Origin: Escherichia coli
Lineage (GTDB): Bacteria; Pseudomonadota; Gammaproteobacteria; Enterobacterales; Enterobacteriaceae
DNA length: 64,000 nt
Assembly: GCF_003018255.1 (NCBI RefSeq)
Contig: NZ_CP027440.1
Direction: 5' to 3' (one strand)
Shown here: positions 61,470 through 62,075 of the stretch, one piece after another
Numbering within the stretch: the first letter of the stretch is position 1
Layout: each line of letters begins with the position of its first letter
Program-made: the position numbers and the translations under genes
Notes under the pieces: generated by a model
The model's database searches: none
Told to the model about the DNA's origin: nothing
Seen by the model: only the letters and a program-made list of their open reading frames with translations

Positions 61470-62075
61470 TCATTGTAAATAATTGAATAACGGCCCCTGA
61501 GCTAAAATCGCCAAACTTAAGCACGTTCCCCACTCAACCCACTTCTGCCCCTGGCTTCTATTTTTGCTACGCCACTGGCAGTAATATCCCAACGCAAAAC
61601 CAAGCTGTGCACTAATCGGGCCGACAAAATCAGTCCACGGCTGCGGCCAAAAAGGGGAAAAATTCAGGGGAAGCCAGACAAACGTCAGAAAGAAGTTTCG
61701 GATATTTTCCAGCAACGCTGATTTCTCTGGAGTAATATAAAGAATGAAATTCGAGAGAATTAACCAGAAATAGGCCGGAGAAAAGACCAGCCAGTAATGC
61801 AGTCTGTTTTTTAATTCAGGAGGCGTTCTGCGGGAGAATTGCCAACCGATGCCACCCATTACACTGAAAAAAAGTGCATATTCAACCATTAACTCAAGTT
61901 GTAATTCCTGAAGAGAAATACGCACAACCAGGAGCGGAAAGGAGAATATTATTTCAGCCAGAAAAGTTAACGTGAATATAAGTACGGCTAAGGCAATAAC
62001 CGTCGGCCATACCAATAATGGCACGATAACAAAACCGAGAATTACAGGGGGAATATAAAGCCGGAATTTAATCAT
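61470..62075 (-). CDS. Hypothetical polytopic inner-membrane protein (island gene 3), 201 aa
   Basis: ORF with SD-like caccaggaaa upstream; about 5-6 hydrophobic segments rich in F/W/L; starts 2 nt after the stop of the upstream gene; no family recognised. Confidence 0.6.
   Translation of the reverse strand: MIKFRLYIPPVILGFVIVPLLVWPTVIALAVLIFTLTFLAEIIFSFPLLVVRISLQELQLELMVEYALFFSVMGGIGWQFSRRTPPELKNRLHYWLVFSPAYFWLILSNFILYITPEKSALLENIRNFFLTFVWLPLNFSPFWPQPWTDFVGPISAQLGFALGYYCQWRSKNRSQGQKWVEWGTCLSLAILAQGPLFNYLQ

Follow-up and report, generated by a model that had tools for sequence, protein, structure and literature searches.

orf201, a free-standing member of the YzgL membrane-domain family at the glgP–glpD locus of Escherichia coli

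The closest described relative of the protein considered here is full-length YzgL, a 502-amino-acid (aa) product annotated as a 'PstS family phosphate ABC transporter substrate-binding protein', which probably lies in O-island 133 (OI-133) of Escherichia coli EDL933 and which persists in K-12 only as a stub (yzgL, b3427). The subject of this report is orf201, the gene for a polytopic membrane protein near the end of a 64,000-nucleotide (nt) stretch of E. coli DNA (contig NZ_CP027440.1 of NCBI RefSeq assembly GCF_003018255.1), the whole of which is referred to below as the window. The N-terminal ~200 residues of YzgL form a membrane domain that is homologous to orf201. The two are collinear, have motifs in common and carry a positively charged loop before the last helix; their genes belong to the same operon at the same glgP–glpD locus, and both are limited to Escherichia and its close relatives. 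Unlike YzgL, orf201 lacks a PBP_like_2 domain, its chain ending directly behind the last helix. YzgL is itself uncharacterised, and the relationship therefore transfers architecture and not function. A second relative, the product of orf375 in Escherichia albertii (loci L017 and L021), contains the same membrane module, is encoded in the same operon and provides the best sequence bridge between orf201 and the 502-aa protein (hereafter PstS502); it differs from orf201 in having an extra ~180-aa C-terminal region with a further hydrophobic segment, and it is absent from the window and from most E. coli.

Better-known systems offer looser comparisons. DctQ of the tripartite ATP-independent periplasmic (TRAP) transporters and TctB of the tripartite tricarboxylate transporters (TTT) resemble orf201 conceptually only, as small polytopic proteins encoded beside periplasmic solute-binding proteins in operons that lack an ATPase. 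However, orf201 has no sequence or Pfam similarity to either protein, the number of helices differs, no variant of the orf201 locus encodes a 12-transmembrane-helix permease, and the PstS-like domains of the locus belong to the ABC-type phosphate-binding family rather than to DctP or TctC. In its size, its several transmembrane helices, its position at the end of a gene cluster and its divergent alleles, orf201 is like the membrane immunity proteins that accompany colicins, contact-dependent inhibition (CDI) systems and type VI secretion systems (T6SSs); in contrast to these, it is neither adjacent to nor linked with a toxin gene, is not found in a plasmid or island setting and matches no sequence family. 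The CPBP/Abi proteases (PF02517) are likewise polytopic proteins of ~200 aa that are often found at operon ends, but orf201 gave no Pfam match and a regular-expression search of it for EExxxR and FxxxH was empty, in agreement with a first-pass annotation, made from the sequence alone, that had reported no CPBP motifs. Nor was there homology to any characterised transporter or housekeeping family, the kind of relationship which that annotation had named as refuting its reading.

The orf201 protein and the YzgL membrane module

The gene starts with ATG, has an AGGA ribosome-binding site ~8 nt upstream and comprises 201 codons of protein. It is the last gene of a three-gene co-directional cluster, in which the start of orf201 lies 2 nt past the stop of orf258 and the start of orf258 lies 2 nt past orf236. 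The product is very hydrophobic, with hydrophobic segments spanning nearly the whole chain, and hydropathy together with low-confidence AlphaFold secondary structure gives 5–7 hydrophobic helices. Leu (16.4 %), Phe (10.0 %), Pro (7.5 %), Trp (5.0 %) and Tyr (4.0 %) are abundant, aromatic residues making up 19 % of the total, and the initial description of a polytopic protein rich in Trp, Phe, Tyr and Pro is thereby borne out; for comparison, the paralogs of orf201 are 12.5–13 % aromatic with 4.9 % Pro, and the membrane domain of GlpG, also encoded in the window, is 16 % aromatic with 2.7 % Pro. orf201 is a real gene under purifying selection. Between allele classes, the ratio of nonsynonymous to synonymous substitution (dN/dS) is 0.20–0.26 at a synonymous divergence (dS) of ~0.8, whereas glpD in the same genome pairs has a dS of 0.13–0.19 and a dN/dS of 0.01–0.04; based on these figures, orf201 is both real and selected, and its alleles are far older than the surrounding core genome. 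In the closest allele pair, dN/dS reaches 0.44. The GC content of orf201 DNA is 43 %, versus 55 % for glpD.

Profile comparisons identify orf201 as a paralog of the N-terminal polytopic membrane domain of the 502-aa head gene of the operon, i.e., full-length YzgL. The architecture of that protein is a ~200-aa polytopic membrane domain followed by PBP_like_2 (PF12849, TIGR02136), and Pfam and NCBIfam searches gave no match to the latter in orf201, the domain being found only in PstS502 and the shorter PstS330, which are proteins encoded at the locus in other strains. A first pairwise look gave a weak collinear match, with the motif PISAQLGFALGY in one protein and PVGAHISFSLGY at the equal position in the other, and hhalign with shallow alignments returned a probability of just 4.7 %. 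When the orf201 alignment was widened with the divergent homolog L5_184 and the N-domain alignment with L7_499 (55 % identical), hhalign of the orf201 family against the PstS502 N-domains gave a probability of 92.8 % (E 4e-7, score 50.1) over 161 columns, pairing residues 1–169 with residues 2–167 collinearly. Reversed alignments scored 12 and column shuffles 13.7±2.6; shuffles within 10-column blocks, which keep hydropathy, scored 15.5±3.2 (maximum 25.7), and 20-column block shuffles scored 23.4±4.2 (maximum 42.4), such that the maxima of the controls overall were 20.9–42.4 compared with 50.1 for the real pair. The claim of homology was adopted only after the addition of L5_184, L7_499 and orf375 and after these shuffle controls. 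In BLASTP comparisons, E. albertii orf375 matched the PstS502 N-domain (32 % over 195 aa, E 1.6e-20), L5_184 (27.5 % over 178 aa, E 4.7e-10) and orf196 (28.7 % over 101 aa, E 1e-4). A hidden Markov model (HMM) built from N-domains alone recovered L5_184 (54.6 bits, 1.1e-16), Ea_199 (4.8e-7), O157 orf200 (9e-6) and the window protein (3.7e-4), the best of 220 decoy open reading frames (ORFs) standing at 0.079; the reciprocal HMM of orf201 found the N-terminal part of orf375 (orf375N) at 4.5e-11 and likewise parted the family from the 220 decoys.

The identity between orf201 and the PstS502 N-domain is ~20 %. Helix 1 has the common motif G-[IV]-P-[IL]-[LM], the middle helix P-A-[LY] and the penultimate helix P-x-x-[SA]-[QH]-x-x-F-x-L-G-Y, after which an Arg is shared in the next loop. 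Across eight diverse members, 14 residues are invariant (F15, P19, L62, G77, P100, L105, W134, W147, P153, F160, L162, G163, Y164 and R173). The set consists of packing-type residues plus one loop arginine, R173, which is the sole invariant charge, and these members have no conserved His, Asp, Glu, Ser or Cys, nor any catalytic-looking polar set. The domain, for which the name YzgL-N module is used here, thus occurs in three forms within one operon: as a fusion with a PstS-like domain, as a fusion with a different C-terminal region and as the free orf201.

Concerning topology, the binding domain of PstS502 must be periplasmic, and a model with seven helices and the N terminus inside fits the charge distribution of that protein. 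By alignment, orf201 ends just past the seventh helix, and L5_184 ends in the positively charged loop that precedes it. That L5_184 stops before the seventh helix suggests that the core of the module has six helices, with both termini cytoplasmic, and that the exporting helix is optional. An AlphaFold2 prediction for orf201 with 25 homologs was unusable (predicted local distance difference test score, pLDDT, 50; predicted template modelling score, pTM, 0.32), and a Foldseek search with that model returned only the protein's own family.

Distribution and history of the locus

At a coverage of at least 80 %, orf201 DNA is present in 3876 of 5426 complete E. coli genomes (~71 %), always on the chromosome and always between glpD and glgP, and the copies fall into two main identity bands, ~96 % and ~78 %. 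By the same measure, 3354 of the genomes contain the N-domain of the 502-aa gene, 2279 contain orf236 and orf258, and 885 contain PstS330. The haplotype of the window, in which all three ORFs are intact, is matched by 211 complete genomes at an identity of at least 95 %. The orf201 family is confined to Escherichia and its close relatives. Among 5.8 billion proteins, a word-indexed search found orf201 matches only in Escherichia and Shigella; an exhaustive HMMER search with a profile, covering 1.84 billion cluster representatives, gave one full-length cluster, many fragments and frameshift chimeras, and a single genuinely divergent homolog, P0146 (184 aa, E 9.5e-30); and a metagenome scan with the merged family yielded 44 loci, all at the Escherichia glgP–glpD site. 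A scan of genome contigs with peptide patterns derived from orf201 gave just three loci, all from Escherichia, because the patterns are narrow. Pfam, NCBIfam, PADLOC and PHROGs contained no family match to orf201, and Pfam searches with eight diverse family members singly returned only DUF6768 (E 0.67) and Tetraspanin (E 0.07), which were taken as noise. The PADLOC-DB v2 HMMs assigned zero families to orf201, orf258, orf236, PstS502 and PstS330, and a sequence search of the PDB, with single sequences as well as profiles of the merged family, gave nothing below E 0.1. A tblastn search of phages and plasmids with the family produced no genuine match, the one 'plasmid' match (PLSDB NZ_OL790696.1, H75) being spurious, as the record is 4.8 Mb of E. 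coli and evidently a chromosome. In the literature, nothing was found on these genes beyond membership of OI-133 and one screen phenotype. In strain Sakai, ECs4269 is glpD (PMC2241611), and deletion of OI-133 lowered type III secretion in a screen, without follow-up (PMC3378721, PMC10877973). Judging from gene numbering, OI-133 of enterohaemorrhagic E. coli (EHEC) would be the glgP–glpD locus.

RefSeq annotations and fetched loci reveal that the arrangements between glgP and glpD are polymorphic and all co-directional. The commonest (L004 type) is 502-aa 'PstS family' gene–orf236–orf255–orf201. In the type of O157:H7 and Escherichia marmotae, the 502-aa gene is followed by that for a 330-aa PstS-family lipoprotein (PstS330) and by orf200, with the stop of the lipoprotein gene overlapping the start of orf200 by 1 nt, and in the L019 and Escherichia whittamii type it is followed by orf258 and orf196. 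Loci of the L003 type have auf, a fimbrial gene cluster, and then only a stub of orf201; that of the window has auf, orf236, orf258 and orf201. The fullest form, seen in E. albertii L017 (GCA_040800535.1, 1–6600) and L021, is 502–325 (a PstS lipoprotein)–375–236–262–258–199, with gaps of 2–66 nt; it includes an additional paralog of orf258, of 262 aa and 38 % identical, and the 375-aa protein, in which the membrane module occurs a third time. Among the 44 metagenomic loci, all from this site, short forms carry junction remnants; in L023, orf236 codons 1–46 are joined to orf258 codons 239–258, and in L055 the tail of orf258 comes after PstS330. Additionally, truncated or frameshifted copies and deletion junctions are present in many loci. 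Because of the junction remnants, the short loci can be read as deletion derivatives of the long form, and we infer that the ancestral operon was PstS502–PstS-like lipoprotein–orf375–orf236–orf262–orf258–orf201, from which most strains have descended by deletion. In K-12, yzgL (L013, NC_000913.3 3563724–3564005, 93 aa) begins with ~73 codons from the start of the 502-aa gene, which a deletion has joined to DNA that lies just downstream of, and includes, the 3' end of O157-type orf200; yzgL of K-12 is hence a deletion chimera, and the whole operon has been lost from that strain.

In the window, the head gene has been lost. Between aufG and orf236 lie 72 nt that match the 3'-terminal part of the L004 502-aa gene at 88 % nucleotide identity (Table 1), and because of this remnant the three ORFs of the window are seen as the tail of an older operon and not as accessory genes of auf. 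The first-pass annotation had orf201 closing an operon; it is indeed the last gene of a tight co-directional trio, but the trio is the 3' remainder of a longer operon. Other auf-positive loci (L022 and L023) have an intact 502-aa gene downstream of auf, which indicates that the head gene was lost secondarily in the lineage of the window and that the insertion of auf and the loss of the head gene were separate events. The place of orf201 at the end of the glgP-proximal operon is fixed, and its coupling to the preceding gene, whatever that gene is, is tight.

At the head of the locus stands a PstS-like gene, both in four Escherichia species (E. coli, E. albertii, E. marmotae and E. whittamii) and in two further lineages, L007 and the divergent L005. 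In L005, the C terminus of a PstS-like protein is followed by orf278 (50 % identical to orf258) and orf184, the last two overlapping by 13 nt; the orf258–orf201 pair is thus kept at 33–50 % aa identity in a distant lineage, and this gene order implies that the association of PstS-like gene, orf258 and orf201 is older than Escherichia. On the same 2.5-kb metagenome scaffold, downstream of the divergent orf201 homolog, positions 1686–2114 encode a 142-aa secreted protein with ~20-aa repeats (TTFRDEYGHxKGS...). The L007 lineage (metagenome-assembled genome GCA_913778145.1, 5205–8747) is enterobacterial, with a GlgP 91 % identical to that of E. coli and no rtc genes beside glpR. Its order is 176-aa secreted protein–499–251–248, in which 499 is PstS-like and 251 and 248 are homologs of orf236 and orf258, and it has no orf201; with the binding protein, orf236 and orf258 all present, orf201 is evidently dispensable there.

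Candidate roles of orf201

It appears to us an evenly balanced proposition that periplasmic PstS-like binding proteins have their membrane partner in orf201, the free YzgL-N module. Under this proposal, orf201 would consist almost entirely of that module, a domain outside existing classifications in which about six transmembrane helices form the core and a seventh is added; the three paralogous modules would assemble in the inner membrane, probably as a hetero-oligomer; the free module would act as membrane partner or docking subunit for a PstS-like binding protein of the periplasm; and the complex may sense, take up or move an anionic, phosphate-like ligand. Two observations underlie the idea of partnership. 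PstS502 unites module and binding domain in one chain whereas loci of the O157 type encode a binding lipoprotein whose gene overlaps that of a free module, and PstS-like genes are constantly present at the head of the locus. Because the window has neither binding-protein gene, orf201 would there probably have only orf236 and orf258 to act with, provided that it acts at all; otherwise it would be an intact leftover, and it may be idle in this strain.

Several points weigh against such a partnership. The operon encodes no energy-coupling, ATPase, kinase or output domain, and a search of the promoter region of the head gene found no Pho box within 3 mismatches. orf201 occurs without the lipoprotein binding-protein gene (L004 and L019 types) and, in the window, without any binding-protein gene, and the L007 lineage has a binding-protein gene, orf236 and orf258 but no orf201; since each occurs without the other, the partnership is not obligatory. 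The link between orf201 and PstS502 rests on family profiles and two bridging sequences, the window protein alone matching the N-domain HMM weakly at 13.6 bits. AlphaFold2 gave no usable fold at a pLDDT of 50, and the orf201 loop at residues 81–93 (net charge +3) falls in the periplasm under the seven-helix model derived from PstS502, a misfit that makes the topology of orf201 provisional. Finally, persistence at the end of the locus could stem in part from protection by the glpD terminator rather than from function.

A more far-reaching proposal, which we regard as unlikely but worth stating as a whole, is that the glgP–glpD locus encodes a hitherto unrecognised, lineage-specific envelope system, i.e., a new ATPase-less, binding-protein-dependent transporter or sensor of which orf201 would be the obligatory free membrane subunit. 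The parts of such a system would be three paralogs of a new 6/7-helix membrane module (one free, one with a PstS-like domain and one with another domain), two PstS-like periplasmic binders and three cysteine-rich cytoplasmic proteins; its deep allele classes would have arisen from diversifying pressure by phage, toxins or host factors; and the reported drop in type III secretion of the EHEC OI-133 mutant (PMC3378721) would be its read-out.

The main competitor to a binding-protein partnership is that orf201, orf236 and orf258 form an intact but useless remnant of a decaying accessory operon, kept mainly by the glpD terminator and because the head gene was lost only recently. This reading is plausible and can in part be reconciled with the partnership, and we give it a modest chance, well short of an even one. 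Decay is apparent in the head gene, down to 24 codons in the window, in K-12, which retains just the 93-aa chimeric stub, and in the truncated or frameshifted copies and deletion junctions of many loci; a dN/dS of up to 0.44 in the closest allele pair and the lack of a convincing promoter between aufG and orf236 point the same way. However, the window haplotype, shared by the 211 complete genomes noted above, keeps all three ORFs intact, 71 % of E. coli genomes still have orf201, comparisons between deep allele classes give a dN/dS of 0.2, and the orf258–orf201 pair has been conserved at 33–50 % aa identity into a distant lineage.

The first-pass annotation had offered, by analogy, an immunity or export component, and for this no positive support emerged; more than 50 related loci contained no toxin, Rhs/CDI/T6SS, bacteriocin or ABC/ATPase gene, and PADLOC and Pfam were empty. 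A binding-protein-linked transport role in a loose sense is still conceivable for orf201, in that its paralogy with the PstS-fused membrane domain points to a binding-protein-associated membrane component. Immunity in the strict sense, with orf201 guarding against a membrane-acting toxin (a pore-forming colicin, a CDI toxin or a T6SS effector) and the locus being an orphan immunity array, is improbable. It would account for a small polytopic protein at an operon end in low-GC DNA (43 % against 55 % for glpD), for very divergent allele classes (dS ~0.8 compared with 0.13–0.19 for glpD), for the tandem orf258 paralogs of E. albertii and for the sporadic occurrence of the orf258 fold among uncharacterised proteins of many phyla, a distribution typical of conflict genes; but toxin, Rhs, CdiA, VgrG/PAAR, bacteriocin and lysis genes are absent from the window, from RefSeq annotations and from the loci surveyed (44 metagenomic and 10 genomic), orf201 has no copies on plasmids or phages and no Pfam Imm, colicin-immunity or PADLOC match, and the same membrane domain is found fused to a solute-binding domain. 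Anti-phage defence by abortive infection, in which infection would be sensed by the cytoplasmic proteins orf236 and orf258 and the membrane made permeable by orf201, seems less probable again. Although the order of soluble proteins followed by a small transmembrane protein, the low GC content and the variable gene content of the locus would suit it, PADLOC and PHROGs are empty, integrase and mobile-element genes are lacking at a chromosomal site that is fixed, deletions from a single ancestral arrangement, and not cassette exchange, account for the variation, and the residues conserved in the family are Pro, Gly and aromatic packing residues. That same conservation pattern leaves next to no room for an intramembrane enzyme, be it a CPBP/Abi-type protease, a rhomboid-like protease, a PAP2 phosphatase or an acyltransferase; the protein is polytopic and of the right size, and the glpG rhomboid protease gene, though unrelated, is nearby in the window, but R173, in a loop, is the only charged residue that is invariant, no His, Asp, Glu, Ser or Cys is conserved, EExxxR and FxxxH are missing, and none of the eight diverse family members has a Pfam match.

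In sum of its properties, orf201 is a genuine but ordinary-looking accessory membrane protein whose one non-obvious property is to be, as the profiles indicate, a free paralog of the YzgL/PstS-like membrane domain. If that is true, a 'hypothetical protein' of thousands of E. coli genomes gains a family assignment, as do the K-12 pseudogene yzgL and O-island 133 of EHEC, and the family comes with a candidate partner in the PstS-like periplasmic binding proteins. With an unclassified membrane domain present in both fused and free form, the operon would be a natural experiment on how binding proteins dock to membrane partners, and the glgP–glpD site, as a deletion-prone and deeply polymorphic locus, could be used for typing. 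The practical importance will stay modest for as long as no phenotype is known.

The window and the neighbours of orf201

The last 13 kb of the window contains, in order, malT, rtcA, rtcB, rtcR, glpR, glpG, glpE and glpD, followed by three minus-strand ORFs (orf201, orf258 and orf236) and the 3' end of a fimbrial gene (Table 1). Positions 61400–64000 are 100 % identical to E. coli JNE23-011, in which orf201 is annotated as a 'hypothetical protein', orf258 as a 258-aa 'hypothetical protein' and orf236 as a 236-aa 'YbbD family protein', and in which a seven-gene chaperone-usher operon and then glgP lie upstream of the trio. The auf cluster has been placed between glpD and glgP (PMC12928451), and the seven-gene operon is that cluster.

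Table 1. Features of the window between positions 61424 and 64000
Feature	Position	Strand	Description
GC-rich hairpin and T-run	61424..61448	+	In the 53-nt gap between the convergent stops of glpD and orf201
orf201	61470..62075	-	201-aa polytopic inner-membrane protein, WP_001562214.1; free-standing member of the YzgL-N membrane-domain family
orf258	62078..62854	-	258-aa cytoplasmic all-alpha protein with conserved CxxC...CxC motif; conserved upstream partner of orf201
orf236	62857..63567	-	236-aa cysteine-rich cytoplasmic protein, RefSeq 'YbbD family'; first intact gene of the truncated operon
Remnant of yzgL / 'PstS family' 502-aa gene	63582..63653	-	Last ~24 codons and stop (...FLILQGQNLVENVGYVPMDKMLH, stop)
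aufG-like fimbrial adhesin gene, 3' end	63741..64000	-	Last gene of the seven-gene chaperone-usher operon, which continues beyond the window

Of the two neighbours, orf258 yielded a confident AlphaFold model (pLDDT 86.4, pTM 0.87) that is all-alpha, and its CxxC and CxC motifs are conserved. With this model, Foldseek returned 149 clusters of the AlphaFold database at E<=1e-3, mostly 'uncharacterized proteins' of ~250 aa from many phyla, with full-length TM-scores of 0.7–0.8; these matches gave no functional lead and included no solved structural relative, and the predicted fold looks like that of an undescribed, widespread family. The orf236 product has a C-x4-C-x2-C-x2-C cluster near residue 190. 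Its RefSeq name is doubtful, since the score against NF007301 (YbbD family) is 25.3 bits, over residues 7–48 only, where the cut-off is 373, and tblastn against the ybbD pseudogene region of K-12 found no similarity; membership of the YbbD family, or a role as an Rhs-orphan immunity protein, was rejected on these grounds. A suspected internal repeat in orf236 was unsupported by BLAST.

The strong hairpin beyond glpD, with an 11-bp stem containing 7 GC pairs and followed by a T-run, is the glpD terminator and probably ends the orf201 transcript as well; its position may help to explain why that end of the locus is retained when the rest is deleted. On the minus strand, a 237-aa antisense ORF (60820–61533) crosses the 3' portion of glpD and extends, in a different frame, over the final 64 nt of orf201; as one of many long antisense ORFs in a GC-rich stretch, it is almost certainly not a gene. 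At the opposite, glgP side of the island, the auf operon (aufA–G) spans positions 14342–21497 of locus L001.

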